64,000 bases of DNA, from the NCBI GenBank assembly GCA_017472225.1, contig JAFUQS010000062.1, positions 10,825 through 74,824 of the forward strand, in the 5' to 3' direction. The notes under the pieces are model-generated. The model was given only the letters and a program-made list of their open reading frames with translations. It had not been told where the DNA came from and made no database searches. Both the position numbers and the translations under genes were made by a program. Positions 1-9,563 of the stretch are shown here, piece after piece (the first letter of the stretch is position 1; every line of letters begins with the position of its first letter). The stretch is from Clostridia bacterium. GTDB lineage: Bacteria; Bacillota; Clostridia; Oscillospirales; Acutalibacteraceae.

Positions 1-1873
1 GGAAGTAGCCCTTGAAAAGACCACAGGGTACTTTTTTGTCTGTTCTGACAACAATTTCACCTGTTTCACCAACAGGACAGGGATTACCGTCAAGGTCAAC
101 AATATCGATATCATATCCGGGAACAGGCTTACCCATTGCACCCGGCTTCGGAGTTGTTCCGATAAGGTTTCCGATTGTAAGGGTGGTCTCAGTCTGTCCG
201 AAGCCTTCCATAATCACAAGACCGGTTGATTTTTGGAACTGATAGAATACCTCGGGATTGAGCGCTTCACCGGCTGTTGTCGCATATCTGATTGATGAAA
301 GATCATACTTTGAAAGATCTTCCTTAATAAGCATTCTGTACATTGTGGGAGGTGCACAGAAGGTTGTGATGTTGTACTTGGCAAACATCGGTAGGATCTC
401 TGAAGCGTCAAATCTGTCAAAGTCATAAGTAAATACTGCACCTTCACTCATCCACTGACCGTAGAATTTACCCCACATTGCCTTACCCCAACCTGTGTCA
501 GAAATTGTAAGATGAAGGTCTGTCGGCTGAACTGAGTGCCAATATTTTGCTGTTACAAAATGACCGAGGGCATATTTATATGAGTGAGTGGCAATCTTGG
601 GATAACCTGTTGTGCCGGAGGTGAAGAACATAAGCATTTCATCATCACCGCAGGCTGTATCCTCTTCACGGTTGAAGATACTTCTGAAGAGCTTATACTC
701 TTCATCAAAGCTGTGCCAGCCTTCTCTTGAGCCGTTGACAATAATTTTAAGGCTGAGTCCGTCATAGCTTTCACTTGCAAGGTCAACCTGATTTGCAGTT
801 TCACCGTCTGAAGTACAAAGGATAGCCTTAACACCGGCAGCCTTGAAACGATACTCAAAATCGTGAACAACAAGCTGATTTGTTGCAGGGATAATAACAG
901 CACCAAGCTTGTGGAGAGCAAGAGCAGTAATCCAGAACTGATAGTGACGCTTGAGAACGAGCATAACTCTGTCGCCCTTGGTGATACCGAGGCTCTTGAA
1001 GTAGTTTGCAGCTCTTGCAGACTCTTTCTTCATATCCTTGAATGTGAAACGTCTTTCTGTCTTGTCGTTTGAAATATGAAGCATTGCAAGCTTATCGGGG
1101 TACTTATCCGCAACAGCATCAACAACATCGAAAGCAAAGTTGAATTTATCTTCATCCTTGAAGCTGATATCCTTGAGAATGCCGTTTTCATCCTCAGTGG
1201 TTTCAACAAACTTTTCAACAACAAGATGGTGCTGTGTTTTTGCAGCAACCTGAGCTTCGTTGACGATCTCCTGAACAGGAGCCTCATCGCCTGCAATAAC
1301 AACAGCGACGAATGTGCAGTCCTGACCGTCAACAGCAATCATGCCGTGAGGCGCAGAGCTCTTATAGTAGATACTGTCCCCTTCTTCAAGGATTTCTGTA
1401 TGCTGACCAATCTGAACCTTAAGCTTACCGGAAAGCACATAGTCAAATTCCTGACCGCTGTGAGTTGTTGTGCTGATAGGCTTGTTCTGAAGCTCTTCCT
1501 TATATTCGTATTTTGCAAGATAAGGTTCAGCAAGCTTATTTCTGAAAAGAAGAGCAAGGTGATTGATTTCAATGCCTTCATCATCTTCCTTTGAAGTGAT
1601 CTTACCCTGTCCCTTTCTTGTTACTGTATATGATGAAAGGTTACTGCTTCTGCCTTCAAGAAGGTCGGTTTTACCAATACCAAACACCTTTGCGCACTTA
1701 TGGATAAAAGAGAAGGGAAAATCATCTGCACCGGCTTCATATGAAACATATTCTTCAAGGCTGATTTCAACCTTTTCAGCCATCTCCTCCTGAGTATAGC
1801 CGGCAATTTCTCGCATTTCCTTAATTCGGAAAGCCACCTCTTTAAGTTCGTTGTTCATTTTGTTGAGTTCCAT
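1..1873 (-). CDS. Fusion protein: XRE-type HTH + cupin domain + AMP-forming acyl-CoA synthetase (medium-chain/ACS-like). The C-terminus lies beyond the left window edge.
   Basis: Absent from the ORF track because there is no stop codon in the window. Manual minus-strand translation from ATG 1873 (SD CAGGAGG at 1884-1890) showed no stop in every stretch checked codon by codon (about 1021-1873) and reads on to nt 1. It gives MELNKMNNELKEVAFRIKEMREIAGYTQEEMAEKVEISLEEYVSYEAG (HTH), HSGQEFDYVLSGKLKVQIGQHTEILEEGDSIYYKSSAPHGM (cupin), then FAFDVVDAVADKYPDKLAMLHISNDKTERRFTFKDM, MFFTSGTTGYPK and MEGFGQTETT (adenylation motifs). The ORF-track entries in 12-1806 are off-frame shadows. Confidence 0.85.
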   Translation of the reverse strand, partial: MELNKMNNELKEVAFRIKEMREIAGYTQEEMAEKVEISLEEYVSYEAGADDFPFSFIHKCAKVFGIGKTDLLEGRSSNLSSYTVTRKGQGKITSKEDDEGIEINHLALLFRNKLAEPYLAKYEYKEELQNKPISTTTHSGQEFDYVLSGKLKVQIGQHTEILEEGDSIYYKSSAPHGMIAVDGQDCTFVAVVIAGDEAPVQEIVNEAQVAAKTQHHLVVEKFVETTEDENGILKDISFKDEDKFNFAFDVVDAVADKYPDKLAMLHISNDKTERRFTFKDMKKESARAANYFKSLGITKGDRVMLVLKRHYQFWITALALHKLGAVIIPATNQLVVHDFEYRFKAAGVKAILCTSDGETANQVDLASESYDGLSLKIIVNGSREGWHSFDEEYKLFRSIFNREEDTACGDDEMLMFFTSGTTGYPKIATHSYKYALGHFVTAKYWHSVQPTDLHLTISDTGWGKAMWGKFYGQWMSEGAVFTYDFDRFDASEILPMFAKYNITTFCAPPTMYRMLIKEDLSKYDLSSIRYATTAGEALNPEVFYQFQKSTGLVIMEGFGQTETTLTIGNLIGTTPKPGAMGKPVPGYDIDIVDLDGNPCPVGETGEIVVRTDKKVPCGLFKGYF

Positions 1874-1910: not shown

Positions 1911-1945
1911 AAAAAACTCGTCTCAAAGAATAACTTTGAGACGAG
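1911..1945 (-). terminator. Intrinsic terminator of T-box leader 1
   Basis: Minus-sense CUCGUCUCAAAG-UUAUU-CUUUGAGACGAG (12 bp perfect stem, 1917-1945) followed by U6. Its 5' arm overlaps the T-box antiterminator region. Confidence 0.85.
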
Positions 1946-2190
1946 CAATAAACTAATGTTATACCCGCGGTACCACTCAAATTGCGATTCAAAATCGCCA
2001 CCTCAAGCTCCAACAAGCCCTATGCATTAACGCAGCAATCACGAAAGGTATCTACTTATCAAAGATGTTCGGACCTTCAGCTCAGAAGTGATAGGAAAAT
2101 GAAGGGTTGTTTATCGGCTTTCCAGCACCGCCGACTCTCTGTAAAACGCTGACTTCTTCCGTCTTCGTCATAGCTTTTAATATTTAATTT
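1911..2190 (-). promoter_or_regulatory. T-box riboswitch leader, specifier AUC (Ile)
   Basis: Minus-sense elements in order: K-turn/base AGCUAUGACGAAG...CUUCUGAGCU; AG bulge plus distal loop AGAGAGUCGGCGGUGCUGGAAAGCCGA; specifier loop U-AUC-A directly before the lower helix CUUC (codon at 2090-2092); Stem III GCGAUUUUGAAUCGC; T-box core AAUUUGAGUGGUACCGCGGG (1964-1984) with a UGGU bulge (pairs with discriminator A73); then the terminator. Confidence 0.8.
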
Positions 2191-2196
2191 GATGAC

Positions 2197-2225
2197 ATTT
2201 TAGCACTTTAAGAAATTAAAGTCAA
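2197..2225 (-). promoter_or_regulatory. Sigma-A type promoter for T-box leader 1
   Basis: Minus-sense TTGACT (2220-2225), 17 nt spacer, TAAAAT (2197-2202), preceded by TGc (extended -10). Confidence 0.65.
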
Positions 2226-2244: not shown

Positions 2245-3048
2245 TCAGATTTTTTCAATTGAAAACAGCTTCATAGCATTTTTATAAAGGATTTTCTCCT
2301 CCTCTTCCTGTGTAAGCTTCATGGATTTGAAGGCTTTGTATTCTTCTTCATGGCTCCACATAGGAAAATCAGTTCCGAAAACAACCTTATCTGCGCCGTA
2401 AAGTCTGATGAGCTCTCTTACCTCACAGGGCGGAAGCCAATTAAAGGTTGAGCAGCAGTCAACATAAAAGTTTTCATAGTCATGCAGCTTTTCAGCCGCC
2501 TCTTTCCAGCAGGACCAACCGCCGAAATGAGCACCGATAACAGTAAGATTTTTATGCTTTTCCAAAACATTTTTCACTCTGTCCGGATTTGAAAAATCAT
2601 ACCTGATATCTCCCGTATGAAGAAGCACGGGAAAAACACCCTCGCACAAACTGTATATTCTGTCGCACTTAGGGTCATCAATGCAGAATTTTTGAAAATC
2701 AGCATGTAATTTGATGCCCTTGAGACCAAGCTCTTTTATTTTTTCAATGTCTTTTTCAATCTCATAGGAATCAGGGTGCAGCGTGCCAAGACCGGTCAAA
2801 AGTCCGTTTGATTTTTTCACGGTGTCAGCAATGAAGGTGTTTATGGAGTTCACCTGATGAGGAGTTGTTGCAACTGAAAAGACCACATAATGCTTAACTC
2901 CGATTTTATTACCGCTTTCTATAAGTGAAGAATATCTTCCGTCATGGTACATTGCCAAATCATAAAAATCTGCAATCCCCCGCACTGCCCTATCTGCAAT
3001 TTTATCAGGATAAATATGGCAGTGACAGTCAATTATCGGATAATTCAT
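2245..3048 (-). CDS. Amidohydrolase-2 family (ACMSD-like metal-dependent hydrolase/decarboxylase) protein
   Basis: 267 aa. N-terminal IIDCHCHIYP (HxH metal motif), KLHADF, LLHTGD and FGTDFPMW are typical of the PF04909-type TIM-barrel amidohydrolases. Confidence 0.7.
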   Translation of the reverse strand: MNYPIIDCHCHIYPDKIADRAVRGIADFYDLAMYHDGRYSSLIESGNKIGVKHYVVFSVATTPHQVNSINTFIADTVKKSNGLLTGLGTLHPDSYEIEKDIEKIKELGLKGIKLHADFQKFCIDDPKCDRIYSLCEGVFPVLLHTGDIRYDFSNPDRVKNVLEKHKNLTVIGAHFGGWSCWKEAAEKLHDYENFYVDCCSTFNWLPPCEVRELIRLYGADKVVFGTDFPMWSHEEEYKAFKSMKLTQEEEEKILYKNAMKLFSIEKI

Positions 3049-3119: not shown

Positions 3120-5639
3120 TTATGCAGTTTCAACTGAATTTGCTTTCTGAAGGCCGTATTTTTCAATAGCCTCTTCACGCATTTTATATTTAAGAATTTT
3201 ACCGGCAACATTCATCGGGAAGGAATCAACGAAATCAACATATCTGGGAACCTTATGCTTAGCCATATGATCTCTTACATACTGCTTCATTTCATCCCCG
3301 GTCATGCTTTCGCCTTCCTTAAGAATAATGCAAGCAGCAATTTCCTCACCATACTGCTCATCGGGTACACCGATAACCTGAACGTCGCTTACCTTCGGAT
3401 GTGTATAGATGAATTCTTCGATTTCCTTCGGGTAAATATTTTCACCACCACGGATAATCATATCCTTGAGTCTGCCTGTAATACGGTAGTTACCGTCCTC
3501 TGTTTTGCAGGCAAGGTCACCTGTATGAAGCCAACCTTCCTTATCAATTGCGGAAGCTGTTGCCTTGGGCATTTTGTAATAGCCCTTCATAACATTATAT
3601 CCTCGTGCAACGAATTCGCCCGTTACACCAACAGGAAGGTCCTCACCTGTTTCAGGATCAACTATTTTACATTCAATTTCGGGAAGTGCCCTGCCAACAG
3701 TACTTACTCTGACCTCGAGGGAATCATCGGTTGAACTCATGGTACAGCCGGGAGAAGCCTCTGTCTGACCGTAAACAATCGTGATTTCATCCATGTGCAT
3801 CTTGTCAACAACATCCTTCATAACTGAAATCGGACAAGGTGAACCAGCCATAATACCTGTTCTCATGTGTGAGAAGTCAGTTTTCGGGAAATCCGGATGC
3901 TCAAGCATTGCAATGAACATGGTGGGAACACCGTGGAAGGCAGTAATCTTCTCCTGATTGATACAAGCAAGAGACGGCTTCGGTGTGAAATACGGAAGCG
4001 GATAAAGTGTTACACCATGAGTCATTGAAGCGGTCATTGCAAGAACCATACCGAAGCAATGGAACATAGGCACCTGAATCATCATTCTGTCAGCAGTGGA
4101 AAGGTCCATTCTGTCACCAATGCACTTGCCGTTATTAACAACATTGTAGTGAGTGAGCATAACACCCTTGGGGAAGCCTGTTGTTCCCGATGTATACTGC
4201 ATATTACAAACATCGTTCGGGTCAACATTGGCAGCAATTCTGTATACCTCTTCAACGGGAACATTTTCGCTTCTTTCAATCGCTTCTTCCCATGTAAGGC
4301 AGCCTTTTTTCTTGAAACCGACCGTAATAACATTTCTGAGGAACGGAAGACGGCGACAATGGAGAGGCTGTCCCGCTTTTGTTGTTTCAAGCTCAGGACA
4401 AAGCTCTCCGATAATATCGGCATAATGTGAATCACGATAGCCTTCAACAAGAATAAGGGTGTGAGTATCAGATTGTCTGAGGAGATATTCAAGCTCATGA
4501 ATTTTATAAGCTGTGTTAACAGTTACAAGAACAGCACCGATTTTTGTTGCAGCCCAGAAGGCAATATACCATTGCGGAATATTCGTTGCCCATACTGCAA
4601 CATGACTGCCCGGCTTCACACCAAGAGCAAGAAAAGCACGGCAACATTCGTCAACATCATCACGGAACTGGGCGTATGTTCTTGTGTAATCAAGTGTTGT
4701 ATATTTAAAAGCATACTGGTCAGGGAATTCCTCAACCATCTTATCAAGCACCTGAGAGAAGGTCTTTTCAATAAGAGCTTCTTTTTTCCAGACATAATTA
4801 CCTGTGCCTCTGTTGTTGGTGTAAAGATGGCTCTTTTTTCTTGATGGAGCCTGAAACTTTTGCATGAACTGAACAAAATGCGCAAAAATAACATCAATTT
4901 CGGTGAGATCAGGCATCCAATCAGGATTCCATTCAAGAGAAATAAAGCCACTGTAATTTATAGATGAAAGTGCATTGATTACAATGTCAACCGGCACCTC
5001 ACCTTCACCGATAAGGCAATACTCACGCTCACCGTCAATTACTGCTGAGTCCTTAAGATGAACATGCTTGATGTAAGCACCAAGATTTGTGATAGTAGCC
5101 TCAGTATCCTCCTGTTGTTCACAGAATGTATGATAAACATCCCAAAGTGCCGCAATTGAATCACTTGCGAACTCCATAAGAACATCACGCAATGCAGCTG
5201 TGTCAGCAAACATACCGCAGGTTTCAATAAGAATTGTTACATTCTTTTCAGCAGCATAAGAAACAATTTCAGAAAGACAAGCAACTACATTCTCTCTTGC
5301 ATTTTCATCGTTGCCCGAAGCGTAAACTCTTACATAAGGAACACGTATTCCTGCTGCAAAATCAATGTTACGGATAATATACTTTGCATTTTCTTCAACG
5401 CTCTTTGAGGAAATATCTGTACTGATATCAACACAAGGCACAGTAATTCCGGCATCGTTAAGCTTACGCATTGTTGCGGCTGAATTATATTTGTGGAAGG
5501 GACCGTTTTTGTAGGAAAGCTCAGAATCCAGAACATTATGAAGTTCTATACCCTTATAGCCGATTTCTTCTGCAAGAGCTGTGAAATCCTGCCATGAATA
5601 TTCCTTCCAACCGTTAATTGAAAAAGAAAGCTTCATCAT
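3120..5639 (-). CDS. Fusion protein: xylose-isomerase-like TIM barrel (sugar phosphate isomerase/epimerase, AP_endonuc_2-type) + AMP-dependent acyl-CoA synthetase/ligase
   Basis: 839 aa. Residues about 1-265 read GYKGIELH, ILIETCG, WDVYH, HVHLKD, ISLEW (TIM-barrel metal-site pattern). Residues about 280-839 read MQYTSGTTGFPKGVMLTH, YGQTEASP, WLHTGDL, GRLKDMIIRGGENIYPKEIE, GKILK (adenylate-forming superfamily). The SD GAGGAGG lies inside the last codons of the upstream gene, with a 3 nt gap, so the two are translationally coupled. Confidence 0.85.
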   Translation of the reverse strand: MMKLSFSINGWKEYSWQDFTALAEEIGYKGIELHNVLDSELSYKNGPFHKYNSAATMRKLNDAGITVPCVDISTDISSKSVEENAKYIIRNIDFAAGIRVPYVRVYASGNDENARENVVACLSEIVSYAAEKNVTILIETCGMFADTAALRDVLMEFASDSIAALWDVYHTFCEQQEDTEATITNLGAYIKHVHLKDSAVIDGEREYCLIGEGEVPVDIVINALSSINYSGFISLEWNPDWMPDLTEIDVIFAHFVQFMQKFQAPSRKKSHLYTNNRGTGNYVWKKEALIEKTFSQVLDKMVEEFPDQYAFKYTTLDYTRTYAQFRDDVDECCRAFLALGVKPGSHVAVWATNIPQWYIAFWAATKIGAVLVTVNTAYKIHELEYLLRQSDTHTLILVEGYRDSHYADIIGELCPELETTKAGQPLHCRRLPFLRNVITVGFKKKGCLTWEEAIERSENVPVEEVYRIAANVDPNDVCNMQYTSGTTGFPKGVMLTHYNVVNNGKCIGDRMDLSTADRMMIQVPMFHCFGMVLAMTASMTHGVTLYPLPYFTPKPSLACINQEKITAFHGVPTMFIAMLEHPDFPKTDFSHMRTGIMAGSPCPISVMKDVVDKMHMDEITIVYGQTEASPGCTMSSTDDSLEVRVSTVGRALPEIECKIVDPETGEDLPVGVTGEFVARGYNVMKGYYKMPKATASAIDKEGWLHTGDLACKTEDGNYRITGRLKDMIIRGGENIYPKEIEEFIYTHPKVSDVQVIGVPDEQYGEEIAACIILKEGESMTGDEMKQYVRDHMAKHKVPRYVDFVDSFPMNVAGKILKYKMREEAIEKYGLQKANSVETA

Positions 5640-5642
5640 AAT

Positions 5643-7055
5643 TTACGCCTCCTCATATACGATTTTATTGATTGCATTAAGATATGCACGGATACTTGCA
5701 CCAATAATGTCGGTTGAAATACCCTTGCCGGAATAAAGCTTACCGTTATTACGAAGCTTTACAAGTGCAGAGCCCATAGCCTCCTGACCTTCTGTTACGG
5801 ACTGAATCTGGAAGTCGTCAAGCTCATAATGATGACCCACAATCTGTTCAATTGCAAGAAAAGCTGCATCAATGGGTCCGTCACCGCCTGCAAGACCGTT
5901 GATTTTTTCATCGTTTTTGCTCATTGTGATGTTCGCAGTTGCAGAAATAACATTACCGCTATTGATTACATAAGAATCAAGGAAATATGTTGCAGGAACC
6001 TGCAAGGCTGCCGAAGCGATTATGGCGTCAAGCTCCTTTGCACCAACAGGCTTTTTACGGCTGATACGCTTAAATTCTTCATAAACCTTTGACATATCAT
6101 CCTGAGAAAGATCGTATCCGAGAGCCTTTACAGCCTTTGTAACTTCGGAAATATCGTCATGTTCATTAAGAGTGAACTCATTACCGATTGCACCCATAGC
6201 AGAATCAAAAGGAGAGGTTTTACTTCTCTTGGAATTTGCAATCCAATCAATCTGCTTTGAAATTCTGCGGAATTCAGTCATTTTAACTGCAGTTTCAAGC
6301 ATAAATTCATCTGAATGAACCTTAATTGCCTGACAAACAGGAGCAAGGGATGCAGCCTCATTGCCTGAAATTGATGTAACCTTAATTTCTCTGACACCTG
6401 ATTTAATTGCAGAAACACAAAGAGCAGTTGACATACTCATTTCATCGCTGCACTGAATACCTACATTAACATTTTCAGCTGCAGGCACATTGGCATAAAC
6501 ATCGTCTATAAAGGTTGAAATTTCGTCAGCTAGCATGGTGCCTGCTGTGTCACAAAGTGTTACTGTTGCAGCACCTGCCTCAATTGCGGCTGAAACTGCA
6601 TTATAAAGGAAATCAACCTCACTTCTTGTTGCGTCATCAGCGATGAATTCAACATCCTCACAAAGTGATTTTGCCTTTTTAACAAGCTCTTTAATCATTT
6701 CAAGAACCATAGGAGGCTTCTTTTTGCAGATAAATTCCATCTGAACGGTTGAAGTAGGAACAGCAACCTGTATTCTGGGGTGTTTTGCATCCTTGAGAGC
6801 ATCTGCTATTCTTTCAACATCAGCCTCTTCAAGATTGACAGGCACAGCAAGAACACTGTTATTTACACAAGAAGCTATTGACTTGATGAGAAGTACATCT
6901 GTTTTTTCTTTCACAATCTGGGGAAGCTCGATAACGGAAACATTCACTTTATCAAGCAGCTTTGCAATTTCAATTTTCTCCCTGAAACTGAGAGCATAAT
7001 CACTTGACTTTGCAGCTTGCTTTAATGTAATGTCAGCAATTGATATTTTTTCCAT
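5643..7055 (-). CDS. 2-isopropylmalate synthase (LeuA)-like protein lacking the canonical catalytic motifs; the LeuA allosteric/dimerisation domain is retained
   Basis: The ORF-track entry 5643..7211 is over-extended through the T-box. The real start is ATG 7055 (MEKISIADITLK) with SD AAGGAG at 7065-7070. The HMGL-like TIM-barrel scaffold is recognisable, but DTTLRDGEQ reads ADITLKQAAK and the HxH site reads QCS. The C-terminus DDFQIQSVTEGQEAMGSALVKLRNNGKLYSGKGISTDIIGASIRAYLNAINK matches the LeuA_dimer domain. Confidence 0.7.
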   Translation of the reverse strand: MEKISIADITLKQAAKSSDYALSFREKIEIAKLLDKVNVSVIELPQIVKEKTDVLLIKSIASCVNNSVLAVPVNLEEADVERIADALKDAKHPRIQVAVPTSTVQMEFICKKKPPMVLEMIKELVKKAKSLCEDVEFIADDATRSEVDFLYNAVSAAIEAGAATVTLCDTAGTMLADEISTFIDDVYANVPAAENVNVGIQCSDEMSMSTALCVSAIKSGVREIKVTSISGNEAASLAPVCQAIKVHSDEFMLETAVKMTEFRRISKQIDWIANSKRSKTSPFDSAMGAIGNEFTLNEHDDISEVTKAVKALGYDLSQDDMSKVYEEFKRISRKKPVGAKELDAIIASAALQVPATYFLDSYVINSGNVISATANITMSKNDEKINGLAGGDGPIDAAFLAIEQIVGHHYELDDFQIQSVTEGQEAMGSALVKLRNNGKLYSGKGISTDIIGASIRAYLNAINKIVYEEA

Positions 7056-7118: not shown

Positions 7119-7156
7119 AAAAAAATCCTTGAAATTACAGAACGTAACTTCAAGGA
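7119..7156 (-). terminator. Intrinsic terminator of T-box leader 2
   Basis: Minus-sense UCCUUGAAGUUAC-GUUCU-GUAAUUUCAAGGA (13 bp, one GU pair) followed by U7. Confidence 0.85.
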
Positions 7157-7395
7157 CGAATAAAATCCGTGGTACCACCTTGTTTACCGCAATATTACGG
7201 TCACTCTTCAAGACTCTGACAAGTCTTTAGCCATGATAACGGGGCATCCGTGACTGCCTACACAACAAATTGCCTTCAACAGTCCTGCTCGGAAATGAGA
7301 CTGAATAATCATCTCGTATCGGTTCGCACCAACCACCGACTCTCTTAAACCAAAGAATAAAAATTCATAATTTCGTCAACGCATTTGTGATATTG
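7119..7395 (-). promoter_or_regulatory. T-box riboswitch leader, specifier CUC (Leu)
   Basis: Minus-sense elements: base UGCGUUGACGAAA...UUUCCGAGCA (K-turn-like GA motif); AG bulge/distal loop AGAGAGUCGGUGGUUGGUGCGAACCGA; specifier loop GU-CUC-A directly before the lower helix UUUC (codon 7297-7299); Stem II GACUG...CAGUC; Stem III AAGACUUGUCAGAGUCUU; T-box core AAACAAGGUGGUACCACGG (7165-7186) with a UGGU bulge; then the terminator. Confidence 0.8.
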
Positions 7396-7401
7396 AAATG
7401 C

Positions 7402-7430
7402 ATTTTATCATAAAGAATAAAAAATGTCAA
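7402..7430 (-). promoter_or_regulatory. Sigma-A type promoter for T-box leader 2
   Basis: Minus-sense TTGACA (7425-7430), 17 nt spacer, TAAAAT (7402-7407), preceded by TGa (extended -10). Confidence 0.7.
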
Positions 7431-7460: not shown

Positions 7461-8093
7461 TTATTTTGTGCCGAAAATTCTGTCACCTGCATCACCAAGT
7501 CCGGGAACGATATAGCCGTTTTCATTGAGCTTCTCATCAAGCGCAGCACAGTAAACATGAACATCAGGATGTGCTTTTGTAAAAGCTTCAATTCCTTCAG
7601 GTGCAGCAATTATGCACATGAAACGGATTGAACGGGGCTTTCTGAGTTTAATTTGGGACACAGCATCTATACCTGAGCCACCTGTTGCAAGCATCGGGTC
7701 AACAACAAAAACATCTCTTTCGCCGATATCCTTGGGAAGCTTACAATAATATTCAACGGGCTTGAGTGTTTCCTCATCACGGTAAAGTCCGATATGACCT
7801 ATTCTGCATGAAGGTACAAGACTTGTTATACCGTCGACCATGCCGAGACCTGCACGGAGAATGGGTACAACAGCAAGCTTTTTGCCACATATATGCTTAA
7901 CCGTTGTTTTGCAAATAGGTGTTTCAACCTCAACAGCCTCCAAAGGAAGCTCTCTGGTTGCTTCATAACACATAAGAGTTGCAATTTCTGAAACAAGAGC
8001 ACGGAAATCCTTTGAGCTTGTTTCTTTATTTCTGAGTATGGAAAGCTTATGCTGAATAAGCGGATGATCAAAAACAGTTACATTGTTATACAT
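7461..8093 (-). CDS. upp: Uracil phosphoribosyltransferase
   Basis: 210 aa. [35 protein letters not shown] and DPMLATGGS are characteristic of Upp. SD AGGAAA lies 7 nt upstream. Confidence 0.93.
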
Positions 8094-8249: not shown

Positions 8250-9563
8250 ATGAAAAAACAAAAGCGCAAGAAAAAAGGTTGTCTTATTGGTCTCAGTGTT
8301 ATCGCAATTATGCTCGTTGCAGTAATTATTGCCGCTTCGGTTCTGCTTCCCGGAATTGACACAGGCGGATACCGTTACATCGCAATCAATGCAGGAACAT
8401 CCTTCCTGAAAAAACAATCGAGCAGTGAAGTTGACGCACTGCTTCAAAAAACAGGCGGCTTCATAAAGGGTGTATGCCACCCGAATGAAAATTATGAGCA
8501 AATCAAGGACGCCAACATCGAATGGGTGAGATTTGATCTTACTTCACTTCCTTATGACGAAAACGGCAACCTTACACAGGGATATAAAGACTTCAAGGAG
8601 CGTGCCAAGGGTTATGCCGACAACGGAATGAAGGTTATGTGCGTCACCCAATATCCTGAAGTGTACATAGAAGCGGGACTCGACCCGAGAGAGGCTGCAA
8701 GCAAAACAAAAATTCAGGAATATGCCCGTTTCATTGCTGAGGATCTTCAGGGAATCGTTCACGCTTTTCAGATTACAAACGAAATGGGTATTGAGCATTT
8801 CACTCTTCCGCTGACTCTCGATGAAGCTGCAGAATATATCGGCATACAGCTTGAAGCCATGTACGATGTCAGAGGTGATATAATCATCGGCTTCAACTGT
8901 GCCGGTGGCGCAATTTATACACTCGTTGAAAAAATGCAGCCCTACCTTGAATACTGTGACTATGTTGCCCTTGATCTTTATCTCGGTTGCTTTGAAAACA
9001 TGTTCAAGGACATATGGGTATATAACGGTATTCTCAGATATCTGTGGAGCTACACCGGAAAGCCCATTATTCTTAATGAATTCGGCTACATGGGATACGG
9101 TGATGTTAAAAGCGATGAGCAAAAGCAGGAAATTCTGCGTACCTACGGTGTTGAAAGTGAAGAAGAAGCAAGAAAGGATATATTCGCTTTTATCGATAAT
9201 CTGCCCAAGGATTTCAAGGAGCATATGCTGAGTCTTGAATATTCAGATGAAAAAGAACTTGCAGACAAGCTGTTTGACACAGAACTTGCCAATCATCTAT
9301 ACAGAGAAATTCAGGGTGGTTATCAATTAACGGACTACCGCCATACTCCTGAGGATCAGGCAAGATTCTTCACAGATACCATTGCGGGAATAAGAGAACT
9401 CGATTTCCTTTGCGGTGCAATTGTTTATTGCTACAGCGACAGTGATGCCTGTTATATATGCGGACAGGAGGATTGCCCGATTGAAACCGGATGGGGGCTT
9501 GTGGATTTACACGGTGAACCAAAGCCGGCATACTATGCCGTTCAGAAAGCATTTGAAAACTGA
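8250..9563 (+). CDS. Membrane-anchored glycoside-hydrolase-like protein (clan GH-A TIM-barrel pattern)
   Basis: 437 aa. One N-terminal TM helix. Candidate acid/base ITNEMG and nucleophile ILNEFGY are spaced as in GH5-like enzymes. The family is not resolved by eye. Confidence 0.4.
   Translation: MKKQKRKKKGCLIGLSVIAIMLVAVIIAASVLLPGIDTGGYRYIAINAGTSFLKKQSSSEVDALLQKTGGFIKGVCHPNENYEQIKDANIEWVRFDLTSLPYDENGNLTQGYKDFKERAKGYADNGMKVMCVTQYPEVYIEAGLDPREAASKTKIQEYARFIAEDLQGIVHAFQITNEMGIEHFTLPLTLDEAAEYIGIQLEAMYDVRGDIIIGFNCAGGAIYTLVEKMQPYLEYCDYVALDLYLGCFENMFKDIWVYNGILRYLWSYTGKPIILNEFGYMGYGDVKSDEQKQEILRTYGVESEEEARKDIFAFIDNLPKDFKEHMLSLEYSDEKELADKLFDTELANHLYREIQGGYQLTDYRHTPEDQARFFTDTIAGIRELDFLCGAIVYCYSDSDACYICGQEDCPIETGWGLVDLHGEPKPAYYAVQKAFEN

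Follow-up and report, generated by a model that had tools for sequence, protein, structure and literature searches.

A LeuA-like protein without a synthase active site, co-translated with an acyl-CoA ligase in gut and rumen bacteria, is a candidate leucine sensor

Hundreds of gut and rumen bacteria carry a gene related to leuA, which encodes 2-isopropylmalate synthase (IPMS), that is co-translated with an acyl-CoA ligase. We analyzed one such gene and its relatives, starting from a 64,000-nucleotide stretch of the genome of a Clostridia bacterium (hereafter, the window). We observe directly the loss of the catalytic residues, the pattern of conservation in the family, the gene order, the coupling to the ligase, the specificities of the T-boxes, and the neighboring genes for a VorB-type 2-oxoacid:ferredoxin oxidoreductase (VOR) and IlvE. 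With confidence about evenly divided, we propose that the 470-aa product is a LeuA paralogue unable to carry out the Claisen condensation, and that it is a non-catalytic, leucine-binding partner, acting in trans, of a downstream ligase that activates isovalerate. The lack of any catalysis, the binding of leucine, the contact between the proteins, the inhibition, and the isovalerate substrate are all inferred. The sensor role is thus well motivated and has not been demonstrated.

Introduction

Rumen and gut Clostridia, for instance ruminococci, need or use isovalerate, 2-methylbutyrate, and isobutyrate for leucine, isoleucine, and valine, and these 'isoacids' are fed to dairy cattle for the building of branched-chain amino acids. 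The physiology that leads from branched-chain acids to amino acids has been on record for decades (Allison et al., 1962, 1966, cited in PMC7356843), and carboxylation of isovalerate to leucine was reported in rumen bacteria (Allison, Bryant et al., 1962–1971, cited in PMC7356843). In the literature that we searched, we found the genes and regulation of the isoacid route undescribed, no earlier link between the isovalerate pathway and a LeuA-derived protein, and no description of the family reported here, be it the LeuA pseudoenzyme, the pathway genes, or the T-box-controlled ligases and VOR.

Results

A leucine-specific T-box operon

The predicted operon runs from a promoter through a Leu T-box and the LeuA-like gene to a gene fusing a TIM barrel to an acyl-CoA ligase, with or without an Amidohydro_2 gene at its end. 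Its features in the window are as follows.

7402..7430, minus strand: sigma-70-type promoter of the Leu operon (TTGACA-17-TAAAAT, TG-extended), matching at 11 of 12 positions, better than any other site in the region
7149..7388, minus strand: T-box leader with specifier CUC (Leu) at 7299–7297 (RF00230, 121.2 bits against a gathering score of 93, E 8e-27)
7125..7157, minus strand: intrinsic terminator of the Leu T-box, a 15-bp stem followed by a T run
7055..5643, minus strand: LeuA-like pseudoenzyme gene, 470 aa plus stop
5654–5648, minus strand: Shine-Dalgarno sequence GAGGAGG for the next gene, inside the Y-E-E codons of the LeuA-like gene, conserved in relatives
3120..5639, minus strand: 839-aa fusion of a xylose-isomerase-like TIM barrel (residues 21–240) and an AMP-forming acyl-CoA ligase (residues 300–814), proposed to be an isovalerate-CoA ligase
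2245..3048, minus strand: Amidohydro_2/TatD-like hydrolase of 267 aa with an N-terminal HxH, here the final gene of the Leu operon

The promoter lies directly upstream of the start of the T-box, and the LeuA-like gene begins with an ATG at 7055, preceded by AAGGAG, and stops at 5645–5643. A first-pass annotation, made from the letters of the window alone, had called a Leu T-box and translational coupling of the LeuA-like gene to the ligase fusion, and both calls hold in the window and across the relatives. Of the 81 loci whose upstream DNA is long enough, 67 have a detected T-box before the LeuA-like gene, and every one of the 67 specifies leucine (CUC 51, CUG 15, CUA 1), the specifiers being read from the Rfam alignment and the CM alignment. 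Only 3 nt separate the LeuA-like stop from the ATG of the fusion; among relatives, 59 of 70 loci have a spacing between −4 and +5 nt, with the Shine-Dalgarno sequence inside the conserved YEE codons. The fusion follows the LeuA-like gene in all loci with enough downstream DNA, and still does so at 37% identity.

Among the 270 homologues listed, no Rosetta-stone fusion of the LeuA-like gene to the ligase was present. Separately, a few members of the family stand alone, without the TIM-barrel/ligase fusion.

The ligase portion of the fusion falls in a generic ANL subfamily and is PRK12583-like, below the cut-off. Its TIM domain largely keeps the E/D/H/E metal ligands; the first of these, a Glu, is Lys in 24 of 63 orthologues, which weakens the case for this domain as a conserved metalloenzyme. 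The Amidohydro_2 gene occurs in only about one third of related loci, and we rejected it as an obligatory third component.

A LeuA fold without the LeuA active site

The domain order of the 470-aa protein is that of the short bacterial form of LeuA (PRK00915/TIGR00973), a DRE-TIM metallolyase of the Claisen-condensation subgroup: an HMGL-like barrel, a helical accessory segment, and a LeuA_dimer domain.

6246..7055, minus strand: HMGL-like (DRE-TIM) barrel without its metal site (K12, Q13, K16, Q201, S203), residues 1–270
6042..6245, minus strand: linker and subdomain II-like helical segment (LGYDLS...), residues 271–338
5646..6041, minus strand: LeuA allosteric/dimerisation domain (GDGPIDA, EAMG, GISTDIIGASIRAY), residues 339–470, the most conserved part of the protein

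Pfam places HMGL-like (PF00682) at residues 4–268 (E 6e-36) and LeuA_dimer (PF08502) at residues 339–465 (E 7.5e-30). All 17 matching NCBIfam models, the LeuA and CimA equivalogs among them, score below their own cut-offs, the best LeuA equivalog reaching 318.6 bits against a cut-off of 532. An AF2 model (pLDDT 92) has the barrel and the regulatory domain intact, and its barrel superposes on 3RMJ_B, 3EEG, and 3EWB with an rmsd of 1.6 Å and target TM-scores of 0.85–0.94.

We placed the catalytic motifs by HMMER alignment to the solved IPMS structures 3RMJ, 3EWB, and 3EEG, and took the roles of the residues from PMC11532901, PMC11057210, PMC9860122, and PMC10464499. In these alignments DTTLRDGEQ corresponds to D8-I-T-L-K12-Q13-A-A-K16, HCHxDLG to Q201-C-S203-D-E-M-S, and GERAGNA to a gapped 'gne.a..as', the very replacements given in the first-pass annotation. 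The segment AHESGIHQDG, which it could not recognize, is missing together with the whole of subdomain I; a short, variable linker (residues 271–300) with pLDDT below 50 in part stands in its place, and LeuA is the longer protein by about 50 aa. That annotation would have been refuted by Arg, Asp, and His-x-His residues in shifted positions, and neither the profile nor the structure-based alignments contain a shifted Asp/His/His.

Work on MAMS assigns a function to each of the lost positions. The essential metal in MAMS and IPMS is bound by Asp90, His288, and His290 in MAMS numbering; the variants R89K, Q93N, and H388A/D/E have no detectable activity, and accessory subdomain I bears the catalytic His (MAMS His388, with Tyr399) (PMC11532901). 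In the LeuA-like protein the counterparts of Asp90, His288, and His290 are Gln13, Gln201, and Ser203, those of Arg89 and Gln93 are Lys12 and Lys16, and His388 has none. The loss extends through the family: the Asp/His/His triad is kept in 0 of 105 representatives (the five intact LeuA controls all keep it), either metal-ligand His in only 3, the CoA-bridging Gln in 5, and the DRE-TIM Arg in 33. With its catalytic residues absent and its fold and reading frame conserved over many lineages, the protein counts as a pseudoenzyme by sequence; that it has no residual or new activity is an inference.

Conservation has shifted to the regulatory domain

The family is present in the genomes of at least 595 species, and roughly 110 clusters at 50% identity consist entirely of LeuA-like proteins of 455–480 aa. 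Database entries currently carry the names 'alpha-isopropylmalate synthase regulatory domain-containing protein' or 'hypothetical protein'. Mean pairwise identity within the family is 0.575 in the regulatory domain and 0.325 in the barrel, the reverse of real LeuA, where the regulatory domain is at 0.387 and the barrel at 0.453. Judging from these identities, selection in the LeuA-like family has moved to the regulatory domain.

Retention of this domain, inferred at first pass, is borne out by a gap-free alignment to the regulatory domains of real LeuA proteins, with GDGPIDA, EAxG, and G-x-S-T-D-I...AY..A.N all kept. In IPMS the carboxylate of leucine sits between two helix N-termini at the dimer interface of the regulatory domains (PMC11057210). 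The corresponding motifs, G391-D-G-P-I-D-A and S447-T-D-I, follow the LeuA consensus with hardly any variation, a comparison made at the level of motifs only; GDGPIDA aligns to 'GNGPLAA' of MtuIPMS, and its G391 and D392 match positions known for feedback resistance in LeuA. A profile of the C-terminal domain matches 3F6G in the PDB (E 1.6e-9) and, weakly, 1SR9 and 3FIG (full-sequence E 0.0065, with no single stretch within the limit of E = 1). Real LeuA sequences had to be part of the profile for these matches to appear; phmmer with the domain as a single query gave nothing relevant in the PDB.

Neighboring ligases and a proposed carboxylation pathway

Downstream of the Leu operon, the window holds the beginning of a second module.

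2225..2197, minus strand: promoter of the Ile T-box
1934..2180, minus strand: second T-box leader, specifier AUC (Ile) at 2092–2090 (89.7 bits, E 3e-20, just under the gathering score)
1946..1916, minus strand: terminator of the Ile T-box
1..1873, minus strand: HTH(XRE)-cupin-acyl-CoA ligase, MbcS-like, beginning at 1873 and truncated by the left edge of the window; it was typed through its orthologue in a related locus (L001)

In relatives, the LeuA-like gene and the fusion usually lie beside MbcS-like ligases with Ile or Val T-boxes, a VorB-type oxidoreductase, and IlvE. The neighboring ligases match MbcS best; of the T-boxes that precede them, 36 are specific for Ile and 18 for Val. VorB and IlvE both exceed their NCBIfam cut-offs, VorB with 546 bits (cut-off 399) and IlvE with 452 (cut-off 307). 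Related loci thus encode an acyl-CoA ligase, a Vor-type oxidoreductase, and a branched-chain aminotransferase together. Because the positions concerned lie beyond the left edge of the window, where only the ligases are visible, the presence of VOR and IlvE in this genome is inferred from its syntenic relatives.

This company points to the synthesis of leucine from isovalerate, and AMP-forming ligases under starvation-induced T-boxes indicate a biosynthetic rather than a fermentative direction. MbcS activates 2-methylbutyrate and isobutyrate, and isovalerate only poorly (PMC10026030), which would explain why the Leu module has a different ligase. That this ligase activates isovalerate is our proposal, the substrate being inferred from the Leu T-box, the AMP-forming class, and the poor use of isovalerate by MbcS. 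In our best reading the cluster encodes the route described by Allison, in which branched-chain acids are turned into the corresponding amino acids; substrate and direction of flux are inferred.

Discussion

A proposed leucine-sensing partner of the ligase

In the mechanism that we favor, uncharged tRNA-Leu would switch the Leu operon on. The ligase would convert isovalerate to isovaleryl-CoA, the VorB-type oxidoreductase would carboxylate this reductively to 2-oxoisocaproate, and IlvE would transaminate the product to leucine. Translational coupling keeps synthesis of the LeuA-like protein in step with that of the ligase. The LeuA-like protein is predicted to dimerize through its regulatory domains and to take up free leucine in pockets at their interface; when leucine is plentiful it would damp the committed, ATP-consuming step, a feedback inhibition in trans like that of HisZ on HisG.

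HisZ is a catalytically dead paralogue of histidyl-tRNA synthetase that serves as the regulatory subunit of the short-form ATP phosphoribosyltransferase HisG, and both the HisZ–HisG complex and the binding of histidine are experimentally established. The two cases would share a dead paralogue, drawn from the metabolism of the same amino acid, as the end-product-sensing trans subunit of a committed enzyme. They differ in the ancestral fold (a class II aminoacyl-tRNA synthetase for HisZ, DRE-TIM plus LeuA_dimer here) and in the partner (a PRTase for HisZ, a TIM-barrel/ANL-ligase fusion here), and for the LeuA-like protein complex formation and ligand binding are only inferred. A second parallel is offered by IlvN and IlvH, the ACT-domain small subunits of acetohydroxyacid synthase, which are likewise separate polypeptides encoded beside a catalytic subunit and bring branched-chain feedback to the first enzyme of a route, a function that we can only infer for the LeuA-like protein. 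IlvN, however, is a small ACT-fold protein and not a degenerate enzyme, and its fold is unrelated to LeuA_dimer.

A broader reading, which we put forward tentatively and with less than even confidence, is of a three-branch cluster that forms the genetic basis of isoacid carboxylation in rumen and gut Clostridia. It would combine a LeuA-derived leucine-sensing subunit of an isovalerate-CoA ligase with two MbcS-like ligases that carry HTH-cupin sensors in cis, each branch gated by its T-box (Leu, Ile, or Val) and placed under two end-product controls, one through tRNA charging and one through the free amino acid. The predicted chemistry, from branched-chain acid through acyl-CoA and a ferredoxin-dependent step to 2-oxoacid and amino acid, is that of the known isovalerate carboxylation pathway; the classical work on that pathway, to the extent that the citing paper conveys it, concerns physiology and not genes or regulation. 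MbcS, to which the Ile and Val ligases are similar, has a preference for 2-methylbutyrate and isobutyrate (PMC10026030), but in S. aureus it feeds lipid synthesis, and it has neither an HTH-cupin extension nor T-box control.

What the barrel may still do

The former active-site face of the barrel has kept or acquired conserved polar residues (D8, T10, E43, S102, Q105, E107, Y108, E136, D141, R144, D169, and K225), and the barrel is still under purifying selection. Such residues would be superfluous in a pure sensor and may point to a second ligand or to a newly acquired activity. It is possible, if on balance unlikely, that the barrel is neo-functionalized and metal-free. It would then have isovalerate, 2-oxoisocaproate, isovaleryl-CoA, or an acyl-adenylate as a small-molecule ligand, or catalyze a new step that needs no metal, and would cooperate with the amidohydrolase, the TIM domain of the fusion, or both, for example in substrate delivery, in product channeling to VOR, or in proofreading. 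The model of the barrel has high confidence, its identity to consensus across loci is 0.59, and the conserved polar residues lie at the C-terminal ends of the beta strands; there are also family-specific replacements (PxSxVQMEY, K225 in place of a LeuA Glu, and K/R12), a precedent for 2-oxoisocaproate bound in MtuIPMS crystals (3HPS), and the largely preserved E/D/H/E ligands of the TIM domain. Many of the conserved barrel residues are, however, common to LeuA and may be structural, the metal ligands and the essential Arg/Gln/His set are all gone, and sequence change has been much faster in the barrel than in the regulatory domain. Moreover, the TIM domain shows the Glu-to-Lys change and about two thirds of loci have no Amidohydro_2, so that a fixed chemistry involving three enzymes is not conserved.

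LeuA_dimer is a dimerization module, and most of it is conserved, the C-terminal helix included, a pattern suggestive of a protein interface; the tight translational coupling suggests stoichiometric assembly. Both would suit a scaffold that acts independently of leucine, holding the ligase in an active oligomer or tethering it to VOR and IlvE, with the regulatory domain as a surface for dimerization or docking. We consider this improbable: the leucine-pocket motifs of IPMS are still at the LeuA consensus, the embedded Shine-Dalgarno sequence explains part of the C-terminal conservation, and the Ile and Val ligases carry a cupin, a domain of small-molecule type, in the equivalent position, which fits sensing better.

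Clear full-length homology to LeuA and an upstream Leu T-box, as in genuine leuA genes, would speak for a working isopropylmalate or citramalate synthase with shifted or alternative catalytic residues, but the alignments leave very little room for one. No Asp/His/His has moved elsewhere, subdomain I is deleted with its catalytic His, the triad is absent from all 105 relatives compared, and the LeuA and CimA models all fall short of their cut-offs; the Arg-to-Lys change alone inactivates MAMS (PMC11532901). The loss of every catalytic motif could in principle mark a decaying remnant without function, a reading already refuted by the conservation data: an intact frame of constant length in at least 595 species, invariant columns at 37% overall identity, and conserved synteny and coupling under a dedicated T-box.

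Relation to LeuA and consequences for annotation

Set against LeuA itself, the LeuA-like protein is alike in the superposition of the barrel, the motifs of the regulatory domain, and the placement of a Leu T-box. It differs in lacking the metal triad, the essential Arg, the CoA-bridging Gln, and subdomain I, in its shorter length and sub-threshold equivalog scores, in its inverted gradient of conservation, and in its neighborhood; in the loci seen, its gene is never beside leuBCD but beside the acyl-CoA ligase fusion. It would be a new example of the evolution of an enzyme into a regulator, the feedback domain of a canonical pathway and its dead barrel having apparently moved to the first enzyme of a salvage pathway. 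The locus also offers a testable gene set, namely three amino-acid-specific, T-box-gated ligase modules, a Vor-type oxidoreductase, and IlvE. LeuA-like proteins of this kind could easily be miscounted as leuA in metabolic reconstructions of gut metagenome-assembled genomes, and leucine prototrophy by way of isopropylmalate would then be predicted wrongly.

LeuA_dimer domains at 60–71% identity also occur after fragments of unrelated domains (MFS, response regulator, TGT, MBOAT, and 7TMR-HDED). We rejected these as natural sensor fusions; because their N-terminal parts are partial domains, and each is different, they are probably chimeras of assembly or gene calling.

A LeuA paralogue without catalytic residues

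The 470-aa LeuA-like gene and the gene for an 839-aa fusion protein lie on the minus strand in one operon (hereafter, the Leu operon), with the following features.

7430..7402, minus: strong promoter, TTGACA-17-TAAAAT
7388..7149, minus: Leu T-box leader, 121 bits, specifier CUC at 7299-7297
7157..7125, minus: terminator of the Leu T-box
7055..5643, minus: LeuA-like CDS, 470 aa, AAGGAG 5' of the ATG at 7055, stop at 5645-5643
Residues 4-268 of the LeuA-like protein: HMGL-like barrel (Pfam, E 6e-36)
Residues 339-465 of the LeuA-like protein: LeuA allosteric/dimerisation domain (Pfam LeuA_dimer, E 7.5e-30)
Within 5637-5654, minus: SD of the fusion, GAGGAGG, inside Y-E-E codons of the LeuA-like gene
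5639..3120, minus: fusion gene, 839 aa, starting 3 nt past the LeuA-like stop; xylose-isomerase-like TIM barrel (residues 21-240) plus complete AMP-forming acyl-CoA ligase
3048..2245, minus: Amidohydro_2 gene, downstream of the fusion

The LeuA-like protein matches the NCBIfam models for LeuA (2-isopropylmalate synthase, IPMS), CimA and homocitrate synthase, all far under the curated cut-offs (best score 318.6 bits vs 532). Catalytic columns were read by aligning it with HMMER to the IPMS catalytic-domain structures 3RMJ, 3EWB and 3EEG; these alignments are unambiguous and have almost no gaps. The LeuA motif DTTLRDGEQ is replaced by D8-I-T-L-K12-Q13-A-A-K16, HCHxDLG by Q201-C-S203-D-E-M-S, and GERAGNA by a gapped, unrelated stretch. 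In the sister enzyme MAMS, Asp90, His288 and His290 are by experiment the ligands of the essential metal, Arg89 and Thr257 bind the 2-oxoacid, and Gln93 and His388 bridge to CoA, roles that the authors expect to hold in IPMS too (PMC11532901). The LeuA-like protein has K12 for Arg89, Q13 for Asp90, K16 for Gln93, Q201 for His288 and S203 for His290. The subdomain carrying the catalytic His is wholly absent; a short linker spans residues 271-300, where conservation within the family is lowest and pLDDT is partly <50. IPMS catalysis requires accessory subdomain I (PMC9860122). In an AF2 model built from a 100-sequence alignment (mean pLDDT 92), the barrel superposes with IPMS barrels at 1.6 Å, so misalignment hides no 'shifted' catalytic residues. 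The catalytic losses that the first-pass annotation had reported, including that of the AHESGIHQDG segment, therefore stand in every detail; Arg, Asp or His-x-His residues in shifted positions, which would have refuted them, were found neither in the alignments nor in the superposition.

Retention of the LeuA regulatory domain, also claimed at first pass, is supported by the LeuA_dimer match and by a gap-free alignment to LeuA regulatory domains in which G-D-G-P-I-D-A, E-A-x-G and G-x-S-T-D-I...A-Y..A.N are kept. Its profile matches the LiCMS regulatory domain 3F6G (E 1.6e-9) and, weakly, MtuIPMS 1SR9 and 3FIG (full-sequence E 0.0065, no single stretch within the E = 1 limit), the weak alignment setting GDGPIDA against GNGPLAA. 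In MtuIPMS, leucine occupies a hydrophobic pocket formed where the regulatory domains dimerise, and the N-termini of two helices flank its carboxylate (PMC11057210). The motifs kept here sit, in the AF2 model, where two helices of the beta-beta-beta-alpha units start (H394-406 and H450-469). This placement fits a retained capacity for leucine binding without proving it, and leucine binding remains an inference from sequence and model.

A widespread family conserved in its regulatory domain

By word-indexed search we obtained more than 120 clusters from Clostridia MAGs, 59-91% identical to the LeuA-like protein and all about 470 aa. The sole informative source name among them is 'alpha-isopropylmalate synthase regulatory domain-containing protein'; public annotation of the family consists only of a domain-based name, and recognizing it has practical value when the metabolism of gut and rumen Clostridia is reconstructed, since its genes could be mistaken for leuA and counted as such. 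Exhaustive HMMER searching of 1.8 billion representatives yielded about 110 family clusters at 50% identity (455-480 aa, 517 to about 265 bits), with genuine LeuAs beginning at about 233 bits (about 500-516 aa, 28-36% identity, two matched stretches). At least 595 genomes encode a relative in a scan of one genome per species, and carriers among the matches listed include Acutalibacteraceae, Oscillospiraceae, Lachnospiraceae, Christensenellales, Faecousia and others, mostly from rumen and gut.

The Asp/His/His triad occurs in none of 105 family representatives, and His at either position in only three; the five intact LeuA controls aligned with them all keep the triad. Together with the NCBIfam scores and the motif losses, this effectively excludes a genuine synthase using alternative residues. 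A decaying relic is likewise effectively excluded by the number of genomes and the near-constant length across clusters. Within the family, mean pairwise identity rises from 0.325 (barrel) to 0.575 (regulatory domain), whereas in the LeuA controls it falls from 0.453 to 0.387 (n=5 sequences only); the gradient is inverted relative to enzyme LeuA. Identity to consensus over 70 syntenic loci is 0.59 in the barrel, 0.47 in the linker and 0.80 in the regulatory domain; purifying selection is concentrated in the last.

Two full-length LeuA homologues of about 505 aa (P0255 and P0264) have partly degraded motifs, with LC-DGEQ or LC-EGER for LR-DGEQ and RAYND or HSQND for HCHND; they may be intermediates or independent catalytic losses. 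Five other proteins (P0233, P0240, P0243, P0244, P0268) carry a LeuA_dimer domain 58-71% identical to that of the window protein behind unrelated partial domains (MFS, response-regulator, TGT, MBOAT, 7TMR-HDED). Such combinations probably reflect chimeric metagenome assemblies and not real architectures.

Pairing with the TIM-ligase fusion

Annotation of 84 related loci (tblastn, with window proteins and neighbours seen in relatives as queries) places the same fusion directly 3' of the LeuA-like gene wherever enough downstream DNA is available. The interval from LeuA-like stop to fusion start is -4 nt (ATGA overlap) in 29 of 70 loci and +1 to +5 nt in 30, with the SD of the fusion conserved. 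In the window the two genes share one reading frame, with only TAA ATT between them (5637-5654, minus). Translational coupling, first suggested by an SD in the last codons of the LeuA-like gene, is thus upheld by gaps of -4 to +5 nt in 59/70 loci. The C-terminal ...VYEE is conserved and its codons double as the SD, so part of the C-terminal protein conservation reflects a dual-coding constraint.

The pairing is not absolutely universal, since a divergent member (P0306; L086 10001-11449, L087 1611-3059) lies by itself, convergent with rplS and without a ligase fusion 3' of it. The catalytic motifs are likewise missing from P0236, a 468-aa protein of the same cluster with about 37% identity to the window protein.

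Conservation is highest in the ligase domain (0.82) and lowest in the TIM domain (0.59). The D/H/E metal ligands of the TIM domain (4800-5639, minus) are kept in most orthologues, and the first metal-ligand Glu (E139) is Lys in 24/63; this barrel, whose function is unexplained, may also be sliding towards a non-catalytic role. Amidohydro_2, likewise unexplained, occurs in only about a third of related loci. On the plus strand at 8250-9563, between upp (8093..7461) and an RNase H gene, lies a 437-aa ORF to which Pfam assigns nothing at E <= 1e-5; the call is uncertain because a 226-aa ORF overlaps it on the opposite strand.

T-boxes and neighbouring branched-chain modules

A second operon adjoins the first on the same strand, so that the window holds two operons under different branched-chain tRNAs (Leu and Ile T-boxes).

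2225..2197, minus: promoter of the Ile operon
2180..1934, minus: second T-box, 89.7 bits, just under the gathering score of 93 (E 3e-20), specifier AUC (Ile) at 2092-2090
1946..1916, minus: terminator of the second T-box
1873..1, minus: HTH-cupin-acyl-CoA-ligase gene, XRE-type HTH, continuing past the left window edge

A Stem I covariance model built from eight T-box leaders gave 127 hits in the window and 82 loci, and we read the specifier column of each. All 67 T-boxes detected 5' of LeuA-like genes specify Leu (CUC 51, CUG 15, CUA 1), which confirms the Leu T-box proposed at first pass; the 54 upstream of HTH-cupin ligases specify Ile (AUC 36) or Val (GUA 11, GUC 7). The Leu T-box is present in 67/81 loci with >=330 nt of upstream DNA, and in five of the other 14 the LeuA-like gene belongs to a longer operon and comes immediately after ilvE.

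Most long loci place the pair next to genes for one or two HTH-cupin ligases, a small P-loop protein, a four-subunit 2-oxoacid:ferredoxin oxidoreductase (VOR) and an Aminotran_4 protein; in some, the aminotransferase gene is directly 3' of the fusion. A member whose identity to the window protein is only 37% is also accompanied by the complete set. Model cut-offs are exceeded by the oxidoreductase alpha subunit for VorB (546 bits vs 399) and by the aminotransferase for branched-chain aminotransferase, IlvE (452 vs 307); the HTH-cupin ligase scores best with MbcS, under cut-off (444 vs 850). HTH-cupin ligases occur as one copy (Ile T-box) or two (Ile and Val T-boxes) adjoining vor and ilvE. In this organism vor and ilvE are inferred to lie past the window edge, having been seen only in relatives.

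An XRE-type HTH and cupin joined to an MbcS-like acyl-CoA synthetase is an unusual architecture (1-1873, minus; L001 15188-17449; many loci); the HTH-cupin may be an in-cis sensor or confer a DNA-binding role on the ligase. A P-loop protein of ~225 aa is conserved between the ligase and vor genes (L001 17505-18182 and orthologues), has a weak CbiA/MinD-like match and no NCBIfam hit, and may be a maturation or assembly factor of the oxidoreductase.

Proposed role of the LeuA-like protein

Since uncharged cognate tRNA is the signal by which a T-box turns its genes on, the Leu, Ile and Val modules all serve amino-acid supply. AMP-forming ligases act in the activating direction. In the simplest chemistry by which a short-chain acyl-CoA ligase, a Vor-type oxidoreductase and IlvE would yield branched-chain amino acids, branched-chain acids undergo reductive carboxylation: isovalerate would give leucine, 2-methylbutyrate isoleucine and isobutyrate valine. 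Allison and colleagues showed this carboxylation in rumen bacteria in the 1960s (cited in PMC7356843 as references 42-44 and 47). Purified MbcS is selective for 2-methylbutyrate and isobutyrate and uses isovalerate poorly (PMC10026030), which fits MbcS-like ligases in the Ile and Val modules and a different ligase class in the Leu module.

The ligase of every module bears an extra non-ligase element. For Ile and Val it is an HTH-cupin in cis; for Leu there is a TIM barrel in cis plus, in trans, the LeuA-like protein. End-product feedback classically acts on the first ATP-consuming step of a biosynthetic branch, and the cell already has a leucine sensor in the regulatory domain of LeuA. On these grounds the most likely role of the LeuA-like protein is that of a non-catalytic subunit giving leucine feedback to the isovalerate-activating ligase. 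We infer the leucine binding, the physical contact with the fusion, isovalerate as substrate, and inhibition rather than activation. The LeuA-like protein would sense free leucine and the ligase would be damped, which would give the two layers of leucine sensing put forward at first pass, tRNA-Leu charging via the T-box and free leucine via this protein. Such a subunit would be analogous to HisZ, acting in trans with HisG, and to IlvN with the acetohydroxyacid synthase catalytic subunit.

Two other readings remain possible. The dead barrel has a conserved polar face (D8, T10, E43, S102, Q105, E107, Y108, E136, D141, R144, D169, K225) that a sensor does not explain, and this keeps alive a neo-functional barrel with a second ligand or new activity; the protein could also be a leucine-independent scaffold. 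The isopropylmalate synthase family, pseudoenzyme regulators, T-boxes and the isoacid pathway are each known singly. We found no description of the LeuA-derived pseudoenzyme, its obligate pairing with a ligase fusion or the three-T-box cluster in full-text literature searches or a T-box regulon survey.

The Stem I model also matched T-boxes in the flanks of three loci, controlling genes outside the query set: L041 150-263 (minus; Leu CUC), L072 4552-4665 (plus; Asn AAC) and L020 1433-1543 (minus; Met AUG).
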